A stretch of 64,000 nucleotides of DNA from an uncultured Chloroflexia bacterium (lineage in GTDB: Bacteria; Chloroflexota; Limnocylindria; Limnocylindrales; CSP1-4), in NCBI GenBank assembly GCA_963703575.1, contig CAVPEU010000026.1, positions 65,850 to 129,849 on the forward strand. The letters are read 5' to 3'. Shown one piece after another: positions 14,443 through 53,341 of this stretch (position 1 is the first letter of the stretch; every line of letters starts with the position of its first letter). Below the pieces are notes generated by a model, which had not been told where the DNA came from, did no database searches, and saw only the letters and a list, made by a program, of their open reading frames with translations. The position numbers and the translations under genes were made by a program.

Positions 14443-14646
14443 CGTGTTCCTCCTGAGCTCCGGGACGGGCGGGGCTCGCCATTGGCTCGACGCGACCCGA
14501 GCGATCCGGGTTGTGGGTCGCGCGTCAACGCCTCCCGTCGGGGAACGCGGCGGAGTATGCGGGATCGGGTGATGCTGCGCCCACGCAGACCACGTGGTGC
14601 AACGGAGTCCGGTGCGCGGACGCACCGATCGCCGGCTGCGCCCGCG

Positions 14647-40964: not shown

Positions 40965-43148
40965 TCACTGCGGTCGCACCGCCGCCGTCTGCGGTCTCCG
41001 CTCGCCTGCGGGCTGCTCGGACGGGGCCCGGCGCAGGAGCCGCAGCCCGTTGGCGATGATGAGGATGGCGGTCCCCTCGTTGAGCAGGAGCCCCTCGGTG
41101 AGCGACAGCCAGCCCGCCAACGCGCCGGCGACCAGGAGGACGACCGTCGCGAGCGAGAGGGCGATGTTCTGGCGGATGTTGGCGAGCGTGCGGCGGGCGA
41201 GCCGGACCGCGGCCGGAAGCGCGGCAAGGTTGTCCGCCATGAGCGCCACATCGGCCGTTTCGAGTGCGACATCGGTGCCGGCGGCGCCCATCGCCACGCC
41301 GACGTCGGCGAGCGCCATCGACGGGGCGTCGTTCACGCCGTCTCCGACCATCGCGATCGTGCCGTGCTGGCGGCGGAGGGCCTCGACTGCGGCCGCCTTG
41401 TTCTCCGGCAGCAGCCCCGACCGCCACTCGGTGATGCCGACCGCCCGGGCGATCGCCTCGGCCGTCCGCTCGTTGTCGCCAGTCAGCATGACCAGCCGCT
41501 CGACGCCGAGCGAGCGCAGCTCGGCGATCACGTCTCCGGCTCCGTCGCGGAGCGCATCGGCGACCGCCAACAGGCCGATCGGTCCGTCCTCGGCGGCGAG
41601 GAGGACGGCCGTCTTGCCCTCCGCCTCGAGTCGGGCCAGCTCCTCCTGGACGCCATCGGGCAGGCTCGCGGCCCGCTCGCCAACCGGCCGCCCGACGAAC
41701 AGGCGCCGGCCGCCGAGGCTGGCCTCGACCCCGACGCCGGGGGTCGCCCGCAGCTCGGAGCCGGCCTCCAGCGGCAGCCCGCGCTGGCGGGCGGCGTCCA
41801 TGATCGCCGCCGCCAGGGGATGCTCGCTCGCAGCCTCGACCCCGGCCGCCAGGCGGAGGATCTCGTCGGGTGATCGGCCGTCGAGCGGCACGATGTCGGT
41901 GAGCGCTGGCTGCCCACGGGTGAGCGTGCCGGTCTTGTCGAAGGCCACGGCCCGCACGGCGGCGAGCCGCTCGAGGTAGACGCCGCCCTTGACGAGGATC
42001 CCGTCGCGCGCCGCCCGCGAGATCGCCGCCACGACCGAGACCGGAACCGAGATGACGAGCGCGCACGAGCACGACACGGTGAGGACCACGAGGCCGCGAT
42101 ACAGCCATTCGCGCAGGTCGGCGCCAAGCAGCGGCGGCACGACCGCGACGACCGCGGCGAGCACGAACATGGCCGGGGTGTAGACGGCGCCGAAGCGATC
42201 GGCGAACCGCTCGGCGCGACCCTTGGCCGCCTGGGCCTCCTCGACCTGGCGGATGATGCGGACGAGGGTCGTGTCCGCCCACTCCCTGGTCACTTCGATC
42301 TCGAGGGCGCCCGCGCCGTTGACGGTGCCGCCGAAGACGGCCGTCCCGGGCGCCACTTCGACCGGGATCGACTCGCCGGTGATCGGGCTCTGGTCGACCG
42401 AGGAAGTCCCCGACACGACCCGCCCGTCGGTCGGCAGGCGCTCACCCGGGCGCACGACGACGAGATCAGCCGGGACGAGCGTCTCGACCGGGACGAGCGT
42501 CGGCAGCGACCCCGGCGGGCCCTTGAGCAGGGCGACCGGCGGGGCGAGCGCCATCAGGGCGCGGATCGAGCCCCGGGCCCGGTCACTGACGTAGTCTTCG
42601 AGGACCTCGCCGAGCGAGAAGACGACGATGAGCGTCGCCGCCTCGCCGATGACCCCCAGGCCCACCGCCCCGAGCGTGGCCACGACCAGGAGGGTGGTGA
42701 TCGTCAGTCGCCGATCGCGGAGCGCCTGGAGCGCGCTCCGGAGCGGGTGGACGCCGGCCACCACGATCGTGGCCGTATACGGGACCAGGGCGACCTGCGG
42801 CAGGCCGAGCAGGTACTCGAATGCGAGCCCGACGAGGAGCAGCAGCGCTCCGGCGGCCAGGGCGAGGGACTTGGGCTGGCGCCACCAGGCCGGTTCGCCC
42901 TCCGCCGGCCGGCGGGCATCGGCCGGGGCGAGGCCAAGGCCGATCCGCCGGGCGGCTCGCTCGATCTGCTGGTCGGTGACCTGGCCGTCGTGCTCGACGC
43001 CGACGATCCCGGCGGCCTCGAAGACCTCGACCGACCGAACACCCGGGACCCGCAAGAGCGTCCCGGCCACGTCGCCCGCGCAGTCGAGGCACGAGCCGTC
43101 GACGACGCGATAGCGCCGGCGGGCGAGCGTAGACACCGGGGCACTCAT
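40965..43148 (-). CDS. Heavy-metal translocating P1B-type ATPase with atypical transmembrane metal-binding motifs
   Basis: An N-terminal CxxC domain (SCLDCAG), DKTGTLT, SEHPL and GDGVNDAP are present. TM6 reads SCSCAL in place of CPC, and TM8 reads NEGT in place of HEG. Confidence 0.9.
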
Positions 43149-43456
43149 GCCGCAGCGACCTTGCCGATGACCTCGGAGAGGTCGATCTCGTCGACGATCG
43201 CGGTCAGCTCGTCGCAGTAGTCGCACAGGCCCGGGCAGGCCTGGACGCGAGCCGTGAGCTCGCGCGTCAGCTGCTCGCGGGCGCTCTCCTCCAGGGCAAG
43301 CCGCAGCGCCCGGTCGGTCCCGGCGCGCATCGCCCGGAGCTGGATGACGACGTCCACGCTCGACGATCCGGTGTCGAGCATCCGCCCGAGGCCCTCCGCC
43401 TGCCCGCGGAGGTAGTTGACCTGGTTGCGCAGTTTGCGAGGCGGTTGCTGGGCCAT
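43145..43456 (-). CDS. CsoR/RcnR-family (DUF156) metal-sensing repressor-like protein, atypical
   Basis: [43 protein letters not shown] fits the CsoR helical scaffold. The stop overlaps the ATPase start (ATGA). The canonical Cys/His sensing positions appear replaced, and the C-terminus reads [11 protein letters not shown]. Confidence 0.75.
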
Positions 43457-43508
43457 GGGTGAGGCTCCGTTTCTCCTGTTTCGACACCCCCTGGGGGTGT
43501 CTACGTGA

Positions 43509-43883
43509 AGCGTACCAGACGAGCCCCACTCGCGGAACCGACCGCAACCCGCGCCGATCTCGATCTTCGCGGGCTTCCTCGGCGTGGGTCCCGGTTTCCT
43601 CCTGATGCCGACCCTCACCCTGATCGGGTACAGCGCCCGCCTCGCCGCCGCGACGAACTCGGTGGCGGTCACGCTGCCGTCGTTCTCCGCCTTCATCAGC
43701 CACCTGCCGACGGCCACCTTCGACTGGCCGCTCGTGATCGTGACGTCGATCGCGGCGGTCATCGGCTCCTGGTTCGGCGCCCGCTTCACGGCCGGTCGGG
43801 TCAAGTCTGCCGCCCTGTCGCGCATCTTCGCGATCGCGCTCGTCGCGCTCGCCGTGCAGCGCGCCTGGATCCTCGTCTCATGA
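43509..43883 (+). CDS. TauE/SafE (DUF81)-family membrane protein, half-size or 5'-truncated
   Basis: [18 protein letters not shown] is the GxGGG repeat motif. Only about 125 aa lie in frame after a stop at 43506, and the first possible start is GTG 43584. It is divergent from the CsoR-like gene. Confidence 0.4.
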
Positions 43884-43917
43884 CGACCGTCCGCCCGAAG
43901 TACGCCGCCGCACCGCC

Positions 43918-44262
43918 ATGAGGAGACCTTCCATGCGAACTGAGCTTCCGGTCCTCCAGGACCTGCGGATGAGCCTCCCCGCCCCCGACGTGAACGACGC
44001 GACAGCGACCGCTTCGCTCCTGGCCGACCCGATCCGGGCCAGCATCGTGCGGATGCTCCGCGACGGCCCCGTCTGCGTGTGCGAGATGGCCGCCGCCCTC
44101 GGCGCGCGCGAAAACAACGTCAGCAACCATCTCGCCCGGCTCCGCGACGCGGGCCTCGTGCGCGCGAGCCGGTACGGCGCGGACTCACGGCGCGCCTACT
44201 ACGAGCGCGACGATGCGGCATGTCGCCGGGCGCTCGAAGCGCTGGGAGACTTGCTCGGATAG
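43918..44262 (+). CDS. ArsR/SmtB-family metalloregulator
   Basis: LADPIRASIVRMLRDGPVCVCEMAAALGARENNVSNHLARLRDAGLV. Confidence 0.8.
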   Translation: MRRPSMRTELPVLQDLRMSLPAPDVNDATATASLLADPIRASIVRMLRDGPVCVCEMAAALGARENNVSNHLARLRDAGLVRASRYGADSRRAYYERDDAACRRALEALGDLLG

Positions 44263-44319
44263 CGACGCCTGCACCCCGCGTCCCTGCAGGTTCATCGCCG
44301 CCCAACACGAGGAGAGCGC

Positions 44320-44556
44320 ATGAAGAAGATCGAGGTCCTGGGGCCAGGCTGCCACAACTGCCATCTCCTGGAGGAGGCCGCGAGGGAGGCCGTTGCGATG
44401 GCGGGGGTCGAGGCAGAGATCCTGCACGTCACCGATGTCGCCCGCATCGCGAGCTATGGCGTGATGCGCACGCCCGGCCTGGTCATCGACGGCAAGGTGG
44501 TCAGCGCGGGGCGCATCCCCTCCGCAGGCGACATCGTGGTCTGGCTGACCGAGTAG
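44320..44556 (+). CDS. Small thioredoxin-fold protein (redox-active disulfide protein 2-like)
   Basis: GPGCHNCH is a CxxC motif, in a roughly 78 aa Trx-like fold. Confidence 0.7.
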   Translation: MKKIEVLGPGCHNCHLLEEAAREAVAMAGVEAEILHVTDVARIASYGVMRTPGLVIDGKVVSAGRIPSAGDIVVWLTE

Positions 44557-44631: not shown

Positions 44632-44707
44632 TAGGAGGTGTGGCGCCCCCGACAGGAATCGAACCTGTGACCTACCGCTTAGAAGGCGGCTGCTCTATCC
44701 GCTGAGC
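44632..44707 (-). tRNA. tRNA-Arg (anticodon TCT)
   Basis: The reverse complement GCCCCCGTAGCTCAGCGGATAGAGCAGCCGCCTTCTAAGCGGTAGGTCACAGGTTCGATTCCTGTCGGGGGCGCCA forms a cloverleaf with complementary acceptor stems and T-arm GGTTCGATTCC. Confidence 0.8.
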
Positions 44708-44831
44708 TACGGGGGCGTCGGTTACCGGCTCAGTCTACGCAGGCGCCCGGGTATCTGACCGCCGGCCGGTTCGATCCCGGCTCTCGACCAATCCGCGACG
44801 GGCGACCGGATTCGCCACCCATCCCGGGCAG

Positions 44832-45101
44832 CTAATGCCGAATCGAGCTGCTCGGTGCTCCGCCCTGCGTGCTGGCGGCCAGCATCTGGGCCAGGCCCTC
44901 CGCCAGCTTCTGCGCAAGCTCGCGGCTGAACCGCAGCCGTGCGATGGTCGCGCTCGGATCTTCGTGCGGTCCGGGCTCGCCGGTCGGCTGACTCAGCGCG
45001 AGGGTCACGGTCACGCCGAAGGGCCCAGCGGTGATGCTGAAGCCATCGGCATAGATGTCAGGATGATCGGACACGGCACATCTCCTGTCGGGCAGGTCCA
45101 T
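44832..45101 (-). CDS. DUF3467-like small protein
   Basis: IYADGFSITAGPFGVTVTL...ATIARLRFSRELAQKLAEGLAQMLAA. Confidence 0.5.
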   Translation of the reverse strand: MDLPDRRCAVSDHPDIYADGFSITAGPFGVTVTLALSQPTGEPGPHEDPSATIARLRFSRELAQKLAEGLAQMLAASTQGGAPSSSIRH

Positions 45102-45278
45102 CCGCGAGTGTGAGCGCCTGGCGGATCAGCGGTGGACACGGTGCACCCCCGCATTCTCCGCCCGCCGAGGACGACCGAATGGGGCATTCGACCCACTCCC
45201 CCGTCCCGTGGGGCGCGTGATACGCTTCGCGCCCTTCGTGCGGTGCGCCCAGTCCCGCACGTGACGTCGAGCCCGGGA

Positions 45279-46673
45279 ATGCCCGACCAGACCAGACGAC
45301 CGAATCCGGGGCAGCTCGCCCTCGAGCTGCCGAGCACGCTTCCCAGCCTCGGGATGGAGCTGGAGTGGAAGGCGCAGGCCCGCCTGTGGGGCCCGAGCCT
45401 CCACCCGATGTGCTCCTACCTCGCGAGCTTCCCCGCCGCGCTCGCGCATGCTTTCATCGCCCGCTACAGCCGATCGGGCGACGTGGTCCTGGACCCGTTC
45501 TCCGGCCGCGGCACGACGCCGCTCCAGGCCGTCGCGGAGGGCCGCATCGGCGTCGGCAACGACCTCAACCCGTTCGCCCACCTCCTCACGGCGGCCAAGG
45601 TCCAGCCGGCCACGCCCGCGGAGACGCGCACCCGGCTCGCCGCGCTCCGCCTCGCCTGGGCCGCCGACGCCGCCGCCTGGCTCGCCCTCGGCGAGCGCGT
45701 GGTCGCGCGCCCGCGTCACCCGTCGGCACGCGTGCCCGCGCCCGGCAGCGGCGACGGCCCGGACGCCCGCACCGAGACGGTCCCGGACGAGGTGGCCCTC
45801 GCGTTCCACCCGCGGACCCTGGGCCAGCTGCTGTTCGTGCGGTCCCGGCTGCGGCTGGACGATCGCACGGACCGGTTCCTGGCCGGGGCGGTGGCCGGGA
45901 TCCTGCACGGGAAGACGCCGTCCTACCTGTCCACCGTGATGCCCAACACGTTCAGCATGGCCCCACGCTACGTCCGGGATTTCGTGGCCCGGACCGGCTT
46001 CGAGTCCCCGGAGCGCGACGTGTTCGACGCCCTGTCCGCCAAGTTGGACCGGCTCTACCGCCAGGCTCTGCCCGCGACGGGCGGGCTCGCGCTCCTGGGC
46101 GACGCGCGGACGGCCGGACGCCGGGCGCGCACGGCCCTGCGGGCGCGCGGCCTCCCCGACCGCGCCCGGCTCATCGTCACCTCACCGCCGTACCTGCGCG
46201 TGCTCAAGTACGGCTATTACAACTGGCTGCGGACATGGTTCCTGGGCTTCGACGCGCAGGCCATCGATACCGCCCTCGACGACGCGCACCAGCGCGAGCC
46301 CTACCTCGTGTTCCTGCGCGAGGTCCTGGCCGACCTCCGGCCGGCGCTCACGGACGACGGGATCGCGGTGCTCGTGATCGGCGATGTCGAGACCGACCGG
46401 GGCAAGCCGTCGGACATCGGCCTCGACCTGGCCGAGCGCGTGTGGGAGGAGGCCGCCTACCCCGCCGGGTACCGGCTGGCGGGCCTGGTGCGTGACGAGA
46501 TCGCCGCCAACCGCAAGATGACCCGCCTGTGGGGCGAGCAGGCCGGGCGGGCGACCAAGACCGATCGCATCCTGGTGCTGGGCGCGACCGAGGCCGGGCG
46601 CCGGCGGGCGCTTGCCGCCGCCGACCTGCCGATCGACTGGTCGTGGCCGCCGACGAGGCTTCGCGCGATCTGA
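45279..46673 (+). CDS. DNA (N4-cytosine/N6-adenine) methyltransferase, no cognate restriction gene apparent
   Basis: The AdoMet motif I block SGDVVLDPFSGRGTTPLQAVAEGRIGVGNDLNPFAHL lies near the N-terminus. The catalytic motif IV LIVTSPPY lies about 250 aa downstream, so the motif order is permuted relative to typical PF01555 beta-class enzymes. The start is uncertain (Met at 45132/45279/45354). Confidence 0.7.
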   Translation: MPDQTRRPNPGQLALELPSTLPSLGMELEWKAQARLWGPSLHPMCSYLASFPAALAHAFIARYSRSGDVVLDPFSGRGTTPLQAVAEGRIGVGNDLNPFAHLLTAAKVQPATPAETRTRLAALRLAWAADAAAWLALGERVVARPRHPSARVPAPGSGDGPDARTETVPDEVALAFHPRTLGQLLFVRSRLRLDDRTDRFLAGAVAGILHGKTPSYLSTVMPNTFSMAPRYVRDFVARTGFESPERDVFDALSAKLDRLYRQALPATGGLALLGDARTAGRRARTALRARGLPDRARLIVTSPPYLRVLKYGYYNWLRTWFLGFDAQAIDTALDDAHQREPYLVFLREVLADLRPALTDDGIAVLVIGDVETDRGKPSDIGLDLAERVWEEAAYPAGYRLAGLVRDEIAANRKMTRLWGEQAGRATKTDRILVLGATEAGRRRALAAADLPIDWSWPPTRLRAI

Positions 46674-46752
46674 GCCTGCGCGGCGGCTCCGCCCGTTGCC
46701 CCGTCCCCGGCCCGGGGCGTCCCCGGCCCGGGGTAGGATTCGGGCGAAGCCG

Positions 46753-49017
46753 ATGACCCATCCGGAGGCGTCGCAGGTGGGGATCCCGTCACACCACGAG
46801 CCTGATCGCGTCCGGCGCACGATCGTGGGCGCCCTGACCGGGCTGACGACCGCCGCCCTGACCGGGCTGGCGACCGCCGCCCTGGTGCTGGCCGCGCTTG
46901 CGCCGGCGGCGGCCCTCGCCCAGGGTGAGCCGCGGCTCCGGACGGCGATCACCGACGAGGCCGGCGTCCTGTCCGCCGCCGACGAGACGCACATCGGGGA
47001 CGCGCTCCGGGCGTTGCGCGACCAGCGGAACGTCCAGCTGTTCGTCGCCTTCGTCACCACGACGGGAAGCGCGACGGTCACGGAGTTCGCGCAGTCGACG
47101 GCCGTCGCGAACTCGCTGGGCAACAACGACGCGCTGCTGCTGGTCGCGATCGAGGACCGATCGGACGCGCTCTGGGTGGGACCCTCACTGACGGGCGTCA
47201 CGGACACCGAGATCGACGGCATCCTGGTTAACGCCGTGGAGCCGCAGCTCGCCGCCGGCAACTTCGCGGACGCCGTGATCGACGGGGCGGGCGCGCTCAG
47301 CGACGCGCTCGTCGCCGACATCCCGGCGACCGTTCCGCCGGCCACCGCGGCCCCGGCCACACCGGCAACAGGCGAGACCGGCGGCGAGACCGGGGGCGGC
47401 ACCGGATCGTCTCGCGGGCTCGATCTCCGGCCGGTGCTGGCGGTGCTCCTCGTGGCCGGCGGCCTGTTCCTCGTCGGCCGCACCCTGTTCCTGCGCCGTG
47501 CCGCCTCGAAGCTGGATGCCGCCGAGCGCGACAGGCTCTCCCGGGAGGCGAACGCCGCGCTCCTCGCCACGGACGAGGCGGTGCGGGATGCGGACGAGGA
47601 GGTCGGATACGCGGAGGCGCAGTGGGGCGAGGCCGAGGCGGCGCCCTACCGGGAGGCGCTCGCCAGGGCCCGCGACGAGCTGCGCGCCGCGTTCGCGGTC
47701 CGCCAGCAGCTGGACGACGCGGTGCCCGACACGCCGGAGCAGCGCCGCGCGATGCTCCGGGAGATCATCAGCCGCACGACCGCGGCCAACCAGCTGCTGG
47801 CCGCACAGGCGGACCGGCTCGCGCAGCTGCGCGACCTGGAGCGGACCGCCCCCCAGGGGCTGGCCGCCCTGCCCCCCGCCATCGATGCGCTGCAGGCGCG
47901 CCGTGCGGCCGCCGCCGCGACCCTGGAGCGGCTCACGGCCACGTACGCCCCTTCGGCGGTCGCGTCGGTCGGCGGCAACCTCGTCGAGGCCGGCAAGGCC
48001 CTGGCCTCCGCCACCTCGGAGACCGAGCGCGGCCGTGCGCTGCCGGACGCCAGGCGCTCCGAGATGGTCGTGGCGCTCCGGCGCGCCCAGGCGGGCACGG
48101 CCTCCGCAACGCATCTCGTCGAGGCGGTGGAACGCCTTGCCGCCGGCCTGGACGACGCCGCCGCCCGGCTGCCGCAGGAGCTGTCCGCGGCCGCCGCGGA
48201 CATCGAGACCGCGAGGGCCGGCGTCGCACGCTCCTCGGCCGTGCCGCCGCTGCCGCCGGTTCCGGCATCGCCCGGATCGCCCGCAGCGCCGCCCGCGCCC
48301 GATTCCGCGGCCGCCCTGGCCGCCGCCGAGCGAACGCTGGCGGAGGCCCGTCGCGCGGCCGCGGCGAGGCCGCTCGACCCCCTGGCGGCCCTCGAGGTGA
48401 CCACCTCGGCCAACCAGGCCGCGGATGCGATCATCGCCGGCCTCCAGGCCGCCGAGATCCAGCGCCAGCGCCGGTTCCAGGTCGCGGCGGCGGCCGTCGC
48501 CGCGGCGCGCGGGCGGGTGGACCGCGCCGTGGACTACATCAAGACCCGACGCCACGGCGTCGGGCAGCAGGCACGAACGCGCGCGGCGGAGGCGGAGGCC
48601 CGCCTGGCAGACGCCCAGCGGCTGGCCGCCACGGACCCGGAGGCGGCCGTCGCCGCGGCGCAACGGGCGGTCGGGCTCGCGGACGAGGCCTATCGCCTGG
48701 CCGCGAGCGAGTTCGACGCCTGGGACGCGGGCAACGGCCCGGTGGCGGGCCCGTACACCCGGACCGGCCGCGCGGGCTCCCCCGGCGCCGACATCGCCGG
48801 CGCGATCCTGGGCGGGATCATCGGCGGGATCCTGTCCGGCGGCGGCCGGGGCAGCGGCTGGGGCGGCTCGTCCTGGGGCGGTTCCGGTGGCGGTCGCTCC
48901 GGGGGCGGTGGCTTCGGCCCCCCGAGCGGGCCGTTCGGCGGCGGGGGCCGCGTCGGGGGTGGCGGGTTCGGTGGGGGTGGCGGGGGTGGAGGTCGCGCCC
49001 GCGGAGGCCGCTGGTAG
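46753..49017 (+). CDS. TPM-domain (TLP18.3/Psb32/MOLO-1) protein with signal peptide, one TM helix, long cytoplasmic coiled-coil region and Gly-rich C-terminal tail
   Basis: ITDEAGVLSAADETHIGDALRALRDQRNVQLFVAFV...NDALLLVAIEDRSDALWVG is the TPM fold. The TM helix is LRPVLAVLLVAGGLFLVG. About 450 aa of heptad-like Ala/Arg/Glu/Leu-rich sequence follow, and the C-terminus is GGGGFGGGGGGGG. Confidence 0.7.
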   Translation: MTHPEASQVGIPSHHEPDRVRRTIVGALTGLTTAALTGLATAALVLAALAPAAALAQGEPRLRTAITDEAGVLSAADETHIGDALRALRDQRNVQLFVAFVTTTGSATVTEFAQSTAVANSLGNNDALLLVAIEDRSDALWVGPSLTGVTDTEIDGILVNAVEPQLAAGNFADAVIDGAGALSDALVADIPATVPPATAAPATPATGETGGETGGGTGSSRGLDLRPVLAVLLVAGGLFLVGRTLFLRRAASKLDAAERDRLSREANAALLATDEAVRDADEEVGYAEAQWGEAEAAPYREALARARDELRAAFAVRQQLDDAVPDTPEQRRAMLREIISRTTAANQLLAAQADRLAQLRDLERTAPQGLAALPPAIDALQARRAAAAATLERLTATYAPSAVASVGGNLVEAGKALASATSETERGRALPDARRSEMVVALRRAQAGTASATHLVEAVERLAAGLDDAAARLPQELSAAAADIETARAGVARSSAVPPLPPVPASPGSPAAPPAPDSAAALAAAERTLAEARRAAAARPLDPLAALEVTTSANQAADAIIAGLQAAEIQRQRRFQVAAAAVAAARGRVDRAVDYIKTRRHGVGQQARTRAAEAEARLADAQRLAATDPEAAVAAAQRAVGLADEAYRLAASEFDAWDAGNGPVAGPYTRTGRAGSPGADIAGAILGGIIGGILSGGGRGSGWGGSSWGGSGGGRSGGGGFGPPSGPFGGGGRVGGGGFGGGGGGGGRARGGRW

Positions 49018-49101
49018 CGGGACGGAACGACACGCGGGGGTCGACGGCGCCGCCGGACGGCCCGACAATCGATGGACCACAGGGGAACCGGAGGCGACGA
49101 C

Positions 49102-49851
49102 ATGGCACAGACCACGATCCTCGGCCGCATCGGCCAGCTCATGCGCGCGAACGTCAACTCGATCCTGGACCAGGCCGAGGACCCGGAGAAGATGCTCGAC
49201 CAGCTGATCCGGGACTTCACCAGCAACATCGCCGAGGCGGAGGAGGCGGTGGCCCAGACCGTGGGCAACCTCCGCCTGCTCGAGGACGACGAGAGGGAGG
49301 CACGCGAGGCCTCCACCGAGTGGCTGACCAAGGCGAAGGCCGCCTCTGAGCGCGCCGACGCGCTCCGCGCCCTGGGCAACACGGCCGAGGCCGACCGCTT
49401 CGACAGCCTGGCCAGGATCGCGCTCAGCCGCCAGCTGTCGTTCGAGAACCAGGTCGCCACCTTCGGCCCGCAGATCGCGCAGCAGCAGGTGTTCACGGAC
49501 CAGCTCAAGGATGGGCTCAACCGGCTCCGCGTGAAGCGGGAGGAGCTGGTCCAGAAGCGCGACGAGCTGGTCTCCCGGGCGAAGATGGCCCAGGCGCAGC
49601 TGCAGGTGACGCAGAGCCTGAAGGAGGTCTCGGTCCTCGACCCCACCTCCGAGCTCAGCCGGTTCGAGGAGCGGATCCGGCGCCAGGAGGCGCAGGCCCG
49701 CGGCATGGCCGAGGTCGCCGCCTCGTCGCTCGACGACCAGTTCGCGGAGCTGCGGAGCGGCGAGGAGGAGGCCGAGGTCGAGGCGCGCCTGACCGAGCTC
49801 AAGGGCAAGACCCTCACGAGCGGCGCACCCTCGCTCGGATCCGGCAGCTAG
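49102..49851 (+). CDS. pspA: PspA/IM30 (phage-shock protein A/Vipp1) family protein
   Basis: MAQTTILGRIGQLMRANVNSILDQAEDPEKMLDQLIRD is the conserved PspA N-terminal amphipathic helix, in a coiled-coil body. Confidence 0.85.
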   Translation: MAQTTILGRIGQLMRANVNSILDQAEDPEKMLDQLIRDFTSNIAEAEEAVAQTVGNLRLLEDDEREAREASTEWLTKAKAASERADALRALGNTAEADRFDSLARIALSRQLSFENQVATFGPQIAQQQVFTDQLKDGLNRLRVKREELVQKRDELVSRAKMAQAQLQVTQSLKEVSVLDPTSELSRFEERIRRQEAQARGMAEVAASSLDDQFAELRSGEEEAEVEARLTELKGKTLTSGAPSLGSGS

Positions 49852-49943
49852 GACGAGGGTCGGCGCTCACGATCGGACGTGCCCGGGGGCGACGGCGGCA
49901 GGAGCCGCCGTCGCCCCCGACGTTGGGCTAGCATGGGGCCTCG

Positions 49944-50171
49944 ATGAACGAGATGTATCCCCCGTCCGACCTCGCCTCGATGGATCCGCTGGTCCTCATG
50001 AAGAACCTGGACCACGTGCGGATGACCAGCCGGCGGCTGTCGTACATCCTCCAGCAGCAGGTCCACCTCTACACGCCCGAGGCGAACCAGCTCCGGGAGC
50101 AGATCGACCGGTACGTGGAGGCGGAGCGCCAGATCGAGGGCGAAATGGCCCGGCGGCGCATCCGCGCCTGA
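49944..50171 (+). CDS. Small hypothetical protein downstream of pspA
   Basis: A 75 aa ORF with strong GC3 codon bias and a proper ATG, charged and helical; no recognisable motif. Confidence 0.35.
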   Translation: MNEMYPPSDLASMDPLVLMKNLDHVRMTSRRLSYILQQQVHLYTPEANQLREQIDRYVEAERQIEGEMARRRIRA

Positions 50172-50907: not shown

Positions 50908-51984
50908 TCAGGCCCGCCGGACCAGCCCCAGGCCCGGCGCGTCGGGGAGGCGCCAGCGCTTGTCGGGCCCGATCTCGAGACCCGCGATCGGGTCCTCCGC
51001 CAGCAGCAGGCAGCCGTCGAGGTCGACCCAGTCGGCGAGAGGCGACACGACGGCTGACGCGGCGATCGCGATCGACGTCTCCTCCATGCACCCGAGAAAG
51101 GTGCGGAAGCCGAGCGCCCGCGCACGCTCGAGCATCCGCTTCGCCGGACCCATGCCACCACATTTCGCCAGCTTGACGTTCACGCCCGCCACCACGCCCA
51201 CGAGCGCGTCCAGGTCCTCGCTGAACACGGCACTCTCGTCTGCGACCAGCGGCAGCGGCGACCGCTCCTGCAACCACCGGAGCTGGTCCAGGCGACGCGC
51301 CGGGAACGGCTGCTCGATCAGCTCGACGCCCAGCCGCTGCAGCTCCGGGACCAGGGCGAGCGCACCGTCCGGCGTCCAGCCGGTGTTCGCATCCACGCGG
51401 ATGGGGCCCCCGAACACGGACCGGACCGCCTCCAGCGTCTCGACGTCCGCGGGTCCGCCGACCTTGACCTTGAGCGCGGGGAAGTCCGCCGCGCGCCGGG
51501 CTCGCTCGGCGACCACCGAGGGCACGTCGATGCCCAGCGTGAAGTCGGTCGGCGGAATCTCGCCCGGCACGTCGAGCAGGGCGCGCACCGGCAGCCCCAG
51601 GCGCTTGCCGACGAGGTCGTGGAGGGCGATGTCGATGGCGCACTTGGCGGCGCCGTGGTTGCGGATCGCCGCCGCCATCAGCGACTCGGAGGCCTCGAGC
51701 GCCGTCCGCGCCTCCGCCACGGCCCCCCGGAGGCCTGCCTCGATCGGCGCCAGGGCCTCGAGCAGGAGGGGCGCAACCGCCGCCATCGTCGCCGGCGTCT
51801 CGCCGTAGTAGGCGTCCGGGTAGCCCTCGCCCAGGCCCACCGGTCCGTCCGGCCCATCCGCCCCGTCCCGCAGCTCCGCCAGCACGGTGGTGATGACGCG
51901 GCCCTCGCCGTGCGAGGAGCGGGCGATCAGGAACGGGTCCCGCAGCGGCAGGACCAATGTCTCCAGGCGGATCGAGAGCGTCAT
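50908..51984 (-). CDS. Dipeptide (L-Ala-D/L-Glu) epimerase, enolase superfamily
   Basis: The KxK motif sits in LKVKVGG. Metal ligands are DANTGWT, ELIEQP and ADES. KCGG is also present. The start overlaps the DUF1611 gene by 4 nt. Confidence 0.8.
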   Translation of the reverse strand: MTLSIRLETLVLPLRDPFLIARSSHGEGRVITTVLAELRDGADGPDGPVGLGEGYPDAYYGETPATMAAVAPLLLEALAPIEAGLRGAVAEARTALEASESLMAAAIRNHGAAKCAIDIALHDLVGKRLGLPVRALLDVPGEIPPTDFTLGIDVPSVVAERARRAADFPALKVKVGGPADVETLEAVRSVFGGPIRVDANTGWTPDGALALVPELQRLGVELIEQPFPARRLDQLRWLQERSPLPLVADESAVFSEDLDALVGVVAGVNVKLAKCGGMGPAKRMLERARALGFRTFLGCMEETSIAIAASAVVSPLADWVDLDGCLLLAEDPIAGLEIGPDKRWRLPDAPGLGLVRRA

Positions 51985-53126
51985 CCGCCGGTCCCGTGCC
52001 GCTCGTCCGCGGCCGGCTCCGGCTCCTCCGGGAGGGTCACCCAGGGCAACCCGTCCACCGCCGACTCGATCTCCCGCCACAGCCCGCCGCCGCCGAACCG
52101 GACGGGGTCGTCGCACGGAAGCCCGGTCTCGGCCGCGGTCGCCGCGACGATCCGCCGTGCCTCGGCCTCATCGTGGATCAGCGACGTGTTGAGCGCCACG
52201 GCAACGACCTTCGACGGGGCGACCAGCCCCGCCACCTGCTCGTGCACGGCGATGAACCCGGGCAGCGAGGCGATCGGGAACCGCGCCTCCGGCAGGTGGT
52301 CGAAGTCGTGATCGGCCATGCCCGGCTTGTGCACCATGACCATCGCCTGCGGCGTCCCGCCATGGATCAGGCCCAGGGTCACGCTGCTGTACGCCGGGTG
52401 GTCGAGCGAGCCCTGGCCCTCGACCAGCACCCAGTCGCCGCGGCGTTCCCCCTCCTCGACCATCCACTCGATCGTGCCCTGGAGGAAGTCCGCGATCACC
52501 CGGTCCACGGCCACGCCCCAGCCCTCGATCATCATCCCGGTCTGCCCGGTCGGCACGAACGACGCCGAACGTCCCGCGGCCACCGCCGCCCGCCGCAGCT
52601 CGAGCGCCACGGACATCTTGCCGATGGCGCAGTCCGTGCCGACCGTGAGGATCACGCGCTTGCCCGGTCCGTGGCGCCGGCCGACGGCGGTCTCGGTCCG
52701 CTCGGGGGGCCGGCGATAGTCCACGATCCGCACGCCGAACGACCTGGCGGCTTCCGCGAACTCCGGGTCATCGCCCAGGAACGTGTGCAGGCCGGACAGG
52801 ATGTCGAGGCCGGACCGGATCGCCGACAGCACGACCTGGCGCCAGGCCTCGGGCAGCCTGCCACCCGTCGGCGCGATCCCGATCAGCAGCGCGTTGGCCC
52901 GCGGCAGGGACCCGAGCGCATCGTCGAGGGACGCCACGATCGGGATGTCGAACCGCCCGGAGTCGCCCAGCCACTCGCGGACGTTCCGTCCGGCCTGGGT
53001 CGAGTCGATGACGGCGACCACCCGCTCCGACCCGAAGCGGATCACGCCCATCGCGGTCTTGCCGTGGTGGAACCCGAAGTTCCCCTCGGCGAGGATCACG
53101 AGGCGGCGATCGGGCGTCGGCGACAT
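51981..53126 (-). CDS. DUF1611-domain protein (conserved partner of dipeptide epimerases)
   Basis: A P-loop-like ILTVGTDCAIGKMSVALEL is present. The conserved gene pair is translationally coupled. Confidence 0.7.
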   Translation of the reverse strand: MSPTPDRRLVILAEGNFGFHHGKTAMGVIRFGSERVVAVIDSTQAGRNVREWLGDSGRFDIPIVASLDDALGSLPRANALLIGIAPTGGRLPEAWRQVVLSAIRSGLDILSGLHTFLGDDPEFAEAARSFGVRIVDYRRPPERTETAVGRRHGPGKRVILTVGTDCAIGKMSVALELRRAAVAAGRSASFVPTGQTGMMIEGWGVAVDRVIADFLQGTIEWMVEEGERRGDWVLVEGQGSLDHPAYSSVTLGLIHGGTPQAMVMVHKPGMADHDFDHLPEARFPIASLPGFIAVHEQVAGLVAPSKVVAVALNTSLIHDEAEARRIVAATAAETGLPCDDPVRFGGGGLWREIESAVDGLPWVTLPEEPEPAADERHGTGG

Positions 53127-53264
53127 CGGCCATCCAGCGGCTGCGGCAGGGACGGCAGCGAGTCTAGGCGATCGCCCCCGGACCGTGCCGCCCGCCGACG
53201 TCAACGTCATCGGAACAAGGGGACGCCCCCGGGGCGCGGGCCGGGGGCGTCGGAGCGTTCAGGT

Positions 53265-53341
53265 TGGTACCGCATACCGGATTCGAACCGGTGGTCTCCG
53301 CCTTGAGAGGGCGGCGTCCTTGGCCTCTAGACGAATGCGGC
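53265..53341 (-). tRNA. tRNA-Glu (anticodon CTC)
   Basis: The reverse complement GCCGCATTCGTCTAGAGGCCAAGGACGCCGCCCTCTCAAGGCGGAGACCACCGGTTCGAATCCGGTATGCGGTACCA closely resembles canonical bacterial tRNA-Glu (TTCGTCTAGAGGCC D-arm). Confidence 0.8.

Follow-up and report, generated by a model that had tools for sequence, protein, structure and literature searches.

A conserved TPM-PspA gene pair nested between a solitary DNA methyltransferase gene and a small ORF in a Limnocylindrales-like chromosome

The window, i.e., the whole stretch of 64,000 nucleotides analysed here, belongs to a Chloroflexota (Limnocylindrales-like) chromosome with a GC content of ~73%. Within it we studied a row of four same-strand genes beside a tRNA-Arg, which an initial annotation had interpreted as an envelope-stress or membrane-repair module, possibly carried on an island together with a DNA methyltransferase. 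All four genes and the tRNA-Arg are present, and the observation itself is confirmed; the genes and their neighbours are as follows.

44641 to 44716, minus strand: tRNA-Arg(TCT), from ARAGORN, Rfam and positions in related loci
44832 to 45101, minus strand: ORF of 89 aa, in the variable slot
45279 to 46673, plus strand: DNA methyltransferase of the N6_N4 family, 464 aa (PF01555)
46753 (ATG) to 49017, plus strand: TPM/helical-rod membrane protein, 754 aa (PF04536)
49102 to 49851, plus strand: PspA/IM30, 249 aa (PF04012, E 6e-39)
49944 to 50171, plus strand: orf75, a helical-hairpin protein of 75 aa
50229 to 50693, minus strand: convergent conserved ORF, with a core of ~100 aa in relatives

The tRNA-Arg is a syntenic landmark among related loci, and the stretch leading from it through the methyltransferase and the downstream genes to a tRNA-Glu is syntenic in many genomes. 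The convergent ORF behind orf75 is part of the same synteny block and is followed by MR_MLE and DUF1611 genes. The sole variable part of the stretch is the slot between tRNA-Arg and methyltransferase, which ranges from ~0.19 to 7 kb among relatives and harbours the 89-aa ORF in the window. Of the two neighbours named in the initial annotation, the tRNA-Arg was recovered, while the DUF3467 label for this ORF was not supported, as it obtained zero Pfam or NCBIfam matches and did not match DUF3467 even at E <= 10. Likewise, the 89-aa ORF had no tblastn match in 88 related loci (L001-L088), comprising 80 TPM-anchored genomic loci and eight obtained by exact-protein look-up. GC content is uniform across the window (0.70-0.80), which, together with the synteny between the two tRNAs, speaks against the proposed island.

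The second gene of the row encodes a protein composed of the following parts.

46948 to 47304, plus strand: extracytoplasmic TPM domain, aa 66-184 (PF04536, E 8e-22; Foldseek)
47428 to 47502, plus strand: transmembrane helix, aa ~226-250 (hydropathy maximum 2.23; helix in the model)
47503 to 48735, plus strand: cytoplasmic all-helical Ala/Arg-rich rod, ~410 aa (AlphaFold2 model)
48736 to 49014, plus strand: glycine-rich tail, 49% Gly

According to AlphaFold2 (mean pLDDT 82), the protein has a hydrophobic signal/anchor at its N-terminus and then, in this order, the TPM fold, the transmembrane helix, long helices and the glycine tail. The TPM domain matched TLP18.3, BA41, cg2496 and Psb32 in Foldseek (E 4e-6 to 4e-4), and the sequence RRAASK directly after the transmembrane helix fits the positive-inside rule. 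Thus, TPM domain, transmembrane helix and glycine tail agree with the first description, whereas for the segment then called a coiled coil, an all-helical rod or bundle rich in Ala and Arg is the better description; its four helices span 56-70 residues each, and pLDDT is mostly >90. No significant relative of the rod was found by fold or sequence (no PDB fold match, no Pfam match), and it resembles neither PspA (hhalign probability 0.1%) nor, detectably, the tail of Bacillus subtilis YdjH. The glycine-rich tail carries a conserved hydrophobic GAxLGGIIGGILSGG and an invariant C-terminal GGRW. The reading as a single-helix protein is qualified by a third, glycine-zipper-like hydrophobic stretch at aa ~682-699 (Kyte-Doolittle 1.49), which affects the number of membrane passes, and the protein is therefore given as bitopic or polytopic. 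By orthology, it belongs to the Rv2345/Cg2496 type.

PspA shows 54-83% identity across related loci and has an amphipathic N-terminal helix with a hydrophobic moment of about 0.5. Its gene indeed lies closely downstream of the TPM gene, starting 84 nt past the stop codon in the window; across loci this gap measures 37-177 nt (median 75), and 0 out of 58 of these intergenic regions reach a folding z < -2. Around the two genes and in front of orf75, four short elements were located.

46734 to 46739, plus strand: -10-like hexamer TAGGAT, 13 nt 5' of the TPM start codon
49090 to 49094, plus strand: Shine-Dalgarno sequence GGAGG of pspA
49884 to 49919, plus strand: GC hairpin with a perfect 16-bp stem, a 4-nt loop and no U-tract
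49929 to 49934, plus strand: -10-like TAGCAT in GCTAGCATG, 9 nt 5' of the orf75 ATG

A TA(C/G)(G/C)AT motif recurs 8-16 nt 5' of the TPM start in relatives with an evident gene start, suggesting that the TPM-pspA unit has a putative promoter of its own, and a purine-rich GGAG-type site occupies the same position before pspA in nearly all related loci. The hairpin (z -4.7, with 0 out of 200 shuffles folding equally well) likely acts as a terminator at the end of the TPM-pspA transcript; stable hairpins 3' of pspA also occur in relatives, with z < -2 in 26% of loci. Considering a TAnnnT-like hexamer 35-45 nt 5' of pspA in many loci, and the sigma-E site located 262 nt upstream of pspA in S. coelicolor, pspA may also be transcribed alone.

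Outside the Mycobacteriales, pspA was found directly 3' of the TPM gene and on the same strand in 64 out of 64 related loci with enough downstream sequence, covering Chloroflexota and Actinomycetota (Limnocylindria, other Chloroflexota, Streptomyces, Sanguibacter and Salinibacterium). Counting all TPM-carrying loci, 65 out of 81 have pspA directly downstream, the 16 exceptions being nine contig ends and seven Mycobacteriales loci. In different lineages the pair sits in unrelated contexts with opposite-strand genes on its flanks and therefore behaves as one unit. TPM and PspA form a real two-gene unit with strong co-conservation, which supports the earlier proposal of an envelope-stress or membrane-repair pairing and fits published work on YdjH and PspA. 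The pairing is not new, as TPM proteins were already catalogued among PspA partners (Ravi et al. 2024, PMC11237479). Two database "fusion" proteins (P0060, P0074) were rejected as Rosetta-stone evidence, since frameshift read-through in the poly-G tail most likely explains them.

The Mycobacteriales orthologue (Rv2345 type) is located away from pspA, and the TPM protein can therefore function without an adjacent pspA. Alternatively, the TPM/helical-rod protein could act independently of PspA, e.g., as an extracytoplasmic phosphatase/nucleotidase or as a cytoskeletal/divisome tether, with adjacency reflecting shared envelope-stress regulation only. Acid phosphatase activity was reported for the TPM domain of Rv2345, and a ZipA-like nature has been proposed for the protein, both in keeping with such a role, as is a possible separate pspA promoter. 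Nevertheless, we consider this explanation unlikely, because fixed order and short gap are kept across two phyla, also after relocation, an adjacency stronger than co-regulation usually produces, and because one TPM protein has been experimentally shown to anchor PspA. By analogy, the TPM protein is likely the membrane partner of PspA. With its TPM domain outside the cell and the ~410-residue helical rod facing the cytoplasm, it would serve as the resident membrane anchor, and possibly also as an envelope sensor, which binds PspA, the soluble effector, and so brings it to the cytoplasmic side of the membrane. There, PspA would polymerise via the amphipathic helix at its N-terminus, so that damaged bilayer is stabilised or repaired. 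The proposed anchor role is the one shown by experiment for the short TPM protein YdjH.

The methyltransferase matches PF01555 with E 8e-17 and a score of 62 (cut-off 26.7). Its motif I (DPFSGRGTT, aa 72-80) precedes motif IV (TSPPY, aa 301-305), and in PDB and HMM alignments motif I falls on the C-terminal and motif IV on the N-terminal part of beta-class enzymes; the permutation noticed initially is therefore real, and the enzyme is circularly permuted. An SPPY motif IV is typical of N4-cytosine enzymes, and the protein is probably an N4-cytosine methyltransferase producing m4C. Consistent with its description as an orphan, neither the window nor any of the relatives has a nuclease-like gene beside it. 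Identity amounts to 67-84% in those related genomic loci that have the gene and to 75-90% in homologues, conservation is on par with neighbouring housekeeping genes, and the enzyme has no viral relatives and is absent from viral contigs. Together, this describes a solitary, chromosomal, syntenic, lineage-wide core enzyme, not island cargo. It could still be the modifying partner in a restriction or defence system with an unrecognised nuclease (e.g., orf75 or a distal gene), given that PADLOC Type II methyltransferase profiles match it (PDLC03325 at E 7e-36) and that its distant plasmid relatives (28-30% identity) adjoin DUF87/HerA-like ATPases and NurA. However, restriction-modification systems are patchy, whereas this gene shows core-like conservation and synteny and no neighbouring nuclease, and orf75 is a helical hairpin devoid of nuclease features, so that we regard this possibility as very unlikely.

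The 75-aa ORF following pspA is a real conserved gene, as initially called, with 475 homologues. It is restricted to this lineage and 84-99% identical among relatives, and neither a fold relative nor a function was found for it. Its assignment to the TPM-PspA module did not hold: orf75 directly follows the methyltransferase, without TPM-PspA in between, in 49 out of 71 informative orf75-anchored metagenome loci and in seven further loci (L082-L088), while the pair lies between both genes in 21 out of 71. The boundary between pspA and orf75 is marked by the strong hairpin and by orf75's own -10-like element, which is kept whether the upstream neighbour is the methyltransferase or pspA; this conserved motif implies that orf75 is transcribed independently from a putative promoter, the leader being very short or missing. 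In summary, orf75 goes along with the methyltransferase and the synteny block around it rather than with pspA.

One might go further and regard methyltransferase and orf75 as a functional pair, e.g., an epigenetic regulator present throughout the lineage and its small cofactor or regulator, between which TPM-PspA was merely inserted in some genomes. Direct adjacency in most of the 49 loci, where 13-137 nt separate the two genes, the high conservation of both (61-88% and 84-99% identity, respectively) and a linkage persisting despite 3.2 kb of inserted sequence would agree with this. Yet the whole block including MR_MLE and DUF1611 is syntenic, and the adjacency may therefore be inherited gene order; in addition, the separate -10-like element of orf75 and its lack of a recognisable function or fold make functional pairing rather doubtful, even though it is compatible with the interpretation we prefer.

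That interpretation, which we hold with reasonable though not high confidence, is that the row consists of two independent conserved pairs, TPM-PspA being nested between methyltransferase and orf75. The first pair (46753-49851) would form a self-contained two-gene membrane-stress operon; the second joins the methyltransferase (45279-46673) and the 75-aa protein (49944-50171), neither of which has a demonstrable link to PspA. A single envelope-stress or membrane-repair module of all four genes, the methyltransferase being carried along on an island linked to the tRNA, draws on the common strand, the short gaps, the nearby tRNA-Arg and the four-gene order in ~19 close relatives, but this recurrence is block synteny inside one clade. 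Moreover, the methyltransferase is missing from ~45 TPM-PspA loci, the 49 + 7 loci join it to orf75 without TPM-PspA, promoter-like elements and hairpins set the units apart, and variable DNA is found 5' of the methyltransferase instead of surrounding it; with the uniform GC and core-like conservation, the one-module model is largely refuted and extremely improbable. The co-occurrence analysis suggested initially gave a divided answer, in that TPM and PspA are co-conserved, but methyltransferase and orf75 are not co-conserved with them. Among the links between the four genes only TPM-PspA survives testing, and the first interpretation is partly supported. Being two unrelated conserved pairs, the locus is not a stress-plus-methylase island.

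Compared with known systems, the methyltransferase shares catalytic motifs and PF01555 with beta-class N6/N4 enzymes (M.PvuII, M.RsrI, CcrM, TTHA0409), but is permuted, with motif I, ~220 residues and then motif IV, the latter reading SPPY and not DPPY/NPPY. Like CcrM and Dam, it is chromosomal, without a nuclease partner and conserved lineage-wide. The TPM protein has the identical full-length architecture as M. tuberculosis Rv2345 and C. glutamicum Cg2496 (32-34% identity over >80% of the length), and the fold of the Cg2496 TPM domain (PDB 2kpt) matches the window model. The Mycobacterium locus of the orthologue adjoins dnaG and glyS, just like Rv2345 itself; pspA of Mycobacteriales resides in the clgR-pspA-pspM-pspN operon away from the TPM gene, whereas in the window and most other lineages it comes immediately after it. 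YdjH is about 250 aa long; the window protein is far longer (754 aa) and adds the ~410-residue rod between transmembrane helix and glycine-rich tail. Both are membrane proteins in which an extracytoplasmic TPM domain and a transmembrane helix are combined with a glycine-rich tail of low complexity whose last residue is aromatic, and both are encoded on the same strand beside pspA as its conserved partner. The gene order of B. subtilis pspA-ydjGHI is reversed in the window, where the TPM gene comes first, and the window-type pair occurs in Chloroflexota and Actinomycetota instead of Firmicutes. Membrane anchoring of PspA by YdjH in B. subtilis was demonstrated by Scholz et al. 2021 (PMC8581546): YdjH interacts with PspA in a two-hybrid assay, and upon ydjH deletion the PspA membrane foci are lost. 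YdjG and the Band-7 protein YdjI are needed in B. subtilis as well, whereas the conserved neighbourhood contains counterparts of neither. With regard to E. coli Psp (PspA, membrane partners PspB/PspC, activator PspF) and LiaIH, no PspB, PspC, PspF, LiaI or LiaF homologue adjoins the window pspA and the membrane partner stems from an unrelated family, but the logic is shared, namely a soluble PspA/IM30 effector combined with a dedicated integral-membrane partner.

The four same-strand genes described in the initial annotation were confirmed, and its interpretation was borne out in part: a TPM-PspA module is supported, and the links of this module to the DNA methyltransferase, to a genomic island and to the small downstream ORF are not. 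The names of homologues indicate Candidatus Limnocylindrales (Chloroflexota). The region is laid out as follows.

Features of the region around the four-gene row (window positions)
44641-44716, minus strand: tRNA-Arg(TCT), found by ARAGORN and Rfam
44832-45101, minus strand: 89-aa ORF in the slot between tRNA-Arg and the methyltransferase gene
45279-46673, plus strand: DNA methyltransferase, 464 aa (PF01555, E 8e-17)
46734-46739: GGTA(C/G)GAT element before the TPM gene
46753-49017, plus strand: TPM protein, 754 aa (PF04536, E 8e-22)
49102-49851, plus strand: PspA (PF04012, E 5.7e-39)
49944-50171, plus strand: orf75, a conserved ORF of 75 aa
50229-50693, minus strand: convergent conserved ORF, about 100 aa in relatives
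53265-53341: tRNA-Glu(CTC), end of the downstream convergent block

The exception among the gene assignments is the 89-aa ORF, for which the label DUF3467 is unsupported because Pfam gave no such match even at E <= 10, the sole match being DUF5811 at E 0.13; moreover, this ORF had no counterpart in any of the 88 related loci tested (L001-L088). The downstream convergent block (50908-53210, minus strand) encodes MR_MLE (an enolase-superfamily epimerase or racemase), DUF1611, an alpha/beta hydrolase and DUF1015, and from MR_MLE to tRNA-Glu it is syntenic across the clade (L082-L088). Upstream of tRNA-Arg, genes were observed for an ArsR-family regulator (43918-44262) and for a small protein of thioredoxin_3 type (44320-44556), together with a divergent, putative heavy-metal P-type ATPase of about 900 aa (40965-43703, minus strand), the last read from its translation alone; 40965-44556 is probably a metal-resistance cluster. 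Furthermore, the window contains a c-di-GMP-II-GCG riboswitch aptamer at 14459-14544 on the minus strand (RF03170, 67.3 bits with a gathering score of 47.9, E 3e-10), which has no relation to the four-gene row.

The proposed pairing of the TPM gene with pspA stands. A TPM-alignment scan of 185,579 species genomes yielded 529 confirmed loci, the best 80 of which were used together with one further locus from a separate look-up (L081), and pspA was sought in them by tblastn with the window proteins. In 65 of these 81 loci the gene directly downstream of the TPM gene, in the same orientation, is pspA. In nine of the 16 loci without an adjacent pspA the contig breaks off no more than about 700 nt from the TPM match; the other seven belong to Mycobacteriales (Rhodococcus, Nocardia and Mycobacterium), in which the TPM protein is kept apart from pspA. 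The neighbours of the TPM gene in the Mycobacterium locus are dnaG and glyS, the Rv2345-type position. The pair is present in all non-Mycobacteriales loci with enough downstream sequence, in lineages including Limnocylindria, other Chloroflexota, about 19 Streptomyces, Sanguibacter and Salinibacterium, and no third gene was found co-conserved with it across lineages. The distance from the TPM stop to the pspA start is 37-177 nt (median 75), and the gap is unstructured (none of 58 intergenic regions reaching z < -2) and carries a purine-rich, GGAG-type ribosome-binding site ahead of pspA in nearly all cases. A stable hairpin often follows pspA in relatives, that of the window (49884-49919) having a perfect 16-bp stem at z -4.7, with none of 200 shuffles folding as well, and the genes that flank the pair are on the opposite strand in several genomes.

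Two database proteins annotated as TPM+PspA fusions, P0060 (the protein of L006) and P0074 (L081 8001-10988), were rejected as Rosetta-stone evidence. Their junctions are translated intergenic DNA after an out-of-frame poly-G tail, frameshifted stretches occur in the PspA portion of P0074, and read-through of the poly-G tail into pspA occurs in 5 of the 65 loci; both are probably homopolymer sequencing or frameshift artefacts in MAGs and not true fusions.

Only about 19 close Limnocylindrales loci have the methyltransferase gene ahead of the TPM gene, and within 10 kb of the roughly 45 other TPM-PspA pairs there is none. In seven loci fetched by exact-protein look-up (L082-L088), the methyltransferase gene is followed directly by orf75 at gaps of 18-92 nt, with neither TPM gene nor pspA between them. 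A metagenome-contig scan anchored on orf75 gave 80 loci, of which nine were too short upstream; among the 71 informative ones, the upstream neighbour was the methyltransferase, directly, in 49, PspA or TPM, with the pair in between, in 21, and the upstream side was rearranged in one. The direct arrangement includes methyltransferases 83-88% identical to that of the window, and the downstream genes (the convergent ORF of about 100 aa, MR_MLE, DUF1611, alpha/beta hydrolase and DUF1015) are alike in both arrangements. From these neighbour counts it follows that the window holds a TPM-PspA operon inside a methyltransferase-orf75 neighbourhood, and neither the methyltransferase nor orf75, of which it is the usual upstream neighbour, belongs to the TPM-PspA module.

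The small protein itself is highly conserved, with 475 homologues, all unnamed, identity of at least 84% among the best 120 and 48 of 75 columns invariant in an alignment of 21 sequences. Its AlphaFold2 model (pLDDT 89) shows a short helix followed by a helical hairpin, for which the fold search returned non-significant matches only (E > 0.5, generic uL29-like hairpins), and no match was obtained in Pfam, NCBIfam or PADLOC.

The suggestion of a tRNA-linked island is contradicted by uniform composition (GC 0.70-0.80 per kb throughout the window, without a local drop at the four-gene row) and by synteny of the block from tRNA-Arg to tRNA-Glu in many genomes, in which both tRNA genes are themselves syntenic. 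Neither an integrase near the row nor close relatives of the methyltransferase in viral contigs were found. Comparing the same genome pairs, identity was 67-84% for the methyltransferase, 66-83% for PspA, 71-87% for the DUF1611 gene and 38-61% for the TPM protein; with an identity similar to that of PspA and DUF1611, the methyltransferase therefore behaves as a core gene. The only variable part is the slot that separates tRNA-Arg from the methyltransferase (44717-45278 in the window; about 0.19-7 kb in L001-L046), a pattern typical of integration hot spots next to tRNA genes.

Consensus scans of the window for sigma-70 promoters and U-tract terminators found nothing, such consensus sequences being poorly matched to an organism of 73% GC, and comparative alignment and folding were used in their place. 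The alignments revealed a conserved GCTAGCATG (or TAGGAT) about 9 nt 5' of the orf75 ATG (49929-49934 in the window; relatives L093-L117), kept whether the methyltransferase gene or pspA is upstream, and a conserved GGTA(C/G)GAT 8-16 nt 5' of the TPM start in relatives with an evident gene start (L001-L046). We infer that both are -10 elements of short-leader or leaderless transcripts, and the element before the TPM gene suggests a promoter separating the TPM-pspA unit from the methyltransferase; separate transcription is supported because these -10-like elements are conserved in the intergenic alignment. Additionally, TAnnnT-like hexamers (e.g., GACAAT, GAGAAT, TAGGCT, TACCGT) recur in Limnocylindria at a constant spacing, about 35-45 nt 5' of pspA, inside the TPM-pspA gap (49064-49069 in the window), and may represent an additional, pspA-specific stress promoter. 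They are reminiscent of the sigma-E site found 262 nt upstream of sco2168, the pspA gene of S. coelicolor (PMC6767563).

Investigating the methyltransferase, we confirmed the motifs and their order given in the initial annotation, with DPFSGRGTT at aa 72-80 and TSPPY at aa 301-305, in a protein scoring 62.4 bits with PF01555 (cut-off 26.7). The order of class-beta enzymes, i.e., motif IV, target-recognition domain, motif I, is not that found here, as motif I comes first (aa 72) and motif IV after it (aa 302). In HMM and PDB alignments the N-terminus of the query aligns with the C-terminal part of beta-class enzymes, which holds motif I, and its SPPY region with their N-terminus; the permutation is therefore real. 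DPF(S/C)G(R/K)GT and (T/S)SPPY are nearly invariant in the family alignment down to 29% identity, and at E <= 1e-30 the family comprises 196 representatives of 50%-identity clusters. In N4-cytosine enzymes motif IV usually reads SPP(Y/F), and m4C would accordingly be the predicted product.

The absence of a nuclease partner was likewise corroborated, no nuclease-like gene being found beside the methyltransferase in the window or in at least 56 relatives. Distant relatives with 28-30% identity and the same linear order adjoin DUF87/HerA-like ATPases on two unrelated plasmids, Deferribacter pDF308 (L089 3950-6581), where a NurA nuclease gene is also present at the locus, and a haloarchaeal Halorarius plasmid (L090 445-5221), an arrangement that may constitute a methyltransferase-HerA defence-type module. 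PADLOC profiles of Type II methyltransferases also match, one of them sharing the permuted order; given these matches and the plasmid HerA neighbours, the family has defence-linked members, and the copy of this lineage is solitary. A phage or plasmid origin was considered and rejected, as close relatives were absent from viral contigs and the plasmid and Mycoplasma-phage relatives are distant only (23-30% identity).

The TPM protein was modelled with AlphaFold2 using 28 homologues (mean pLDDT 82). Residue numbers of the model, translated from nt 46750, equal the true protein numbering plus one.

Segments of the TPM protein (model numbering)
24-61: N-terminal hydrophobic signal or anchor
67-188: TPM alpha-beta-alpha domain
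about 191-225: disordered Pro/Thr/Gly linker
227-251: TM helix, followed by RRAASK
about 252-662: ten helices, four of them of 56-70 residues, pLDDT mostly above 90
663-755: tail, 49% glycine

The TPM domain scored 78 bits with PF04536 (cut-off 22.1) and was the only part matched in the Foldseek search of the PDB, as an alpha-beta-alpha sandwich (TLP18.3, BA41, Cg2496 and Psb32; 3ptj, 5anp, 2kpt and 7tbr at E 4e-6 to 4e-4, target-normalised TM-scores 0.72-0.84). The helical rod that follows the TM helix has neither a significant fold relative in the PDB nor a Pfam match and is not similar to PspA (hhalign probability 0.1%), and the exact-sequence look-up of the whole protein returned no identical record. 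Within the glycine tail we observed a conserved glycine-zipper stretch, GAxLGGIIGGILSGG (Kyte-Doolittle 1.49, aa ~682-699), and a terminal GGRW invariant among the homologues. AlphaFold2 places a six-residue beta-strand at the C-terminal ARGGRW (model residues 749-754, window ~48994-49011), where the last five-residue block averages a pLDDT of 95 and the preceding block 57. In the model, the zipper stretch and this strand raise the possibility of a second membrane pass, and because the only other multi-residue strands sit in the TPM domain, the GGRW strand might complete the extracytoplasmic TPM sheet and thereby couple envelope state to PspA recruitment.

The PspA of the window is complete over the helical domain (134.4 bits with PF04012, cut-off 33.9; profile positions 2-216 of 220), and residues 4-26, with a hydrophobic moment of 0.46-0.50 comparable to that of helix alpha-0 of E. 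coli PspA, form a predicted membrane-binding amphipathic helix. In the proposed mechanism, the TPM/helical-rod protein would be the resident membrane partner and anchor of PspA, its extracytoplasmic TPM domain possibly the sensor, and PspA the effector that would bind and stabilise the stressed membrane. That the TPM protein is a PspA partner is the best-supported reading, because it combines the gene co-conservation shown here with the modelled topology and the precedent of B. subtilis. In that organism a two-hybrid assay shows interaction between PspA and the TPM protein YdjH, whose deletion abolishes PspA foci; physical interaction with PspA, and a requirement for the partner in bringing PspA to the membrane, are known only for YdjH (PMC8581546). 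Caveats to this reading are the separation of the TPM gene from pspA in Mycobacteriales, the phosphatase report and ZipA-like proposal for Rv2345, and the possible promoter of pspA itself. TPM proteins are among the PspA partners catalogued by Ravi et al. 2024 (PMC11237479). As the link between TPM proteins and PspA is already in the literature, specialists will not be surprised by it; the more novel leads are the class-wide solitary SPPY methyltransferase with orf75, and possible C-terminal strand docking in the TPM protein.

Overall, these results remove the tempting but wrong reading of a methylase plus stress island and show that the long TPM/helical-rod protein and PspA together make up the smallest conserved Psp unit of Chloroflexota and most Actinomycetota. 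A candidate membrane receptor of PspA thereby becomes testable in tractable Streptomyces, which also bears on the unexplained mycobacterial orthologue Rv2345, whose TPM domain was reported as a phosphatase and which was proposed to be ZipA-like; on whether TPM domains have phosphatase or nucleotidase activity, or bind metal, the literature is divided. For Limnocylindria, an abundant, uncultured class of soil and freshwater, the core solitary methyltransferase, probably N4-cytosine specific, and the highly conserved orf75 are further leads. The permuted enzyme could be an essential, class-wide epigenetic regulator with orf75 as co-worker, similar to CcrM or Dam but writing N4-methylcytosine, and, independently of this, the long TPM protein could be a two-pass 'hairpin' sensor; jointly, we consider these two proposals a long shot. 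The TPM protein of the window has the features of a YdjH-type partner, i.e., a TPM domain with a TM helix, encoded beside pspA and co-conserved with it. Compared with pspA-ydjGHI of B. subtilis, the unit has no counterpart of YdjG or YdjI (Band-7/SPFH), no Band_7 profile match being obtained among the window neighbours, the gene order is reversed, and, in contrast to YdjH, the TPM protein carries a rod of about 410 residues.
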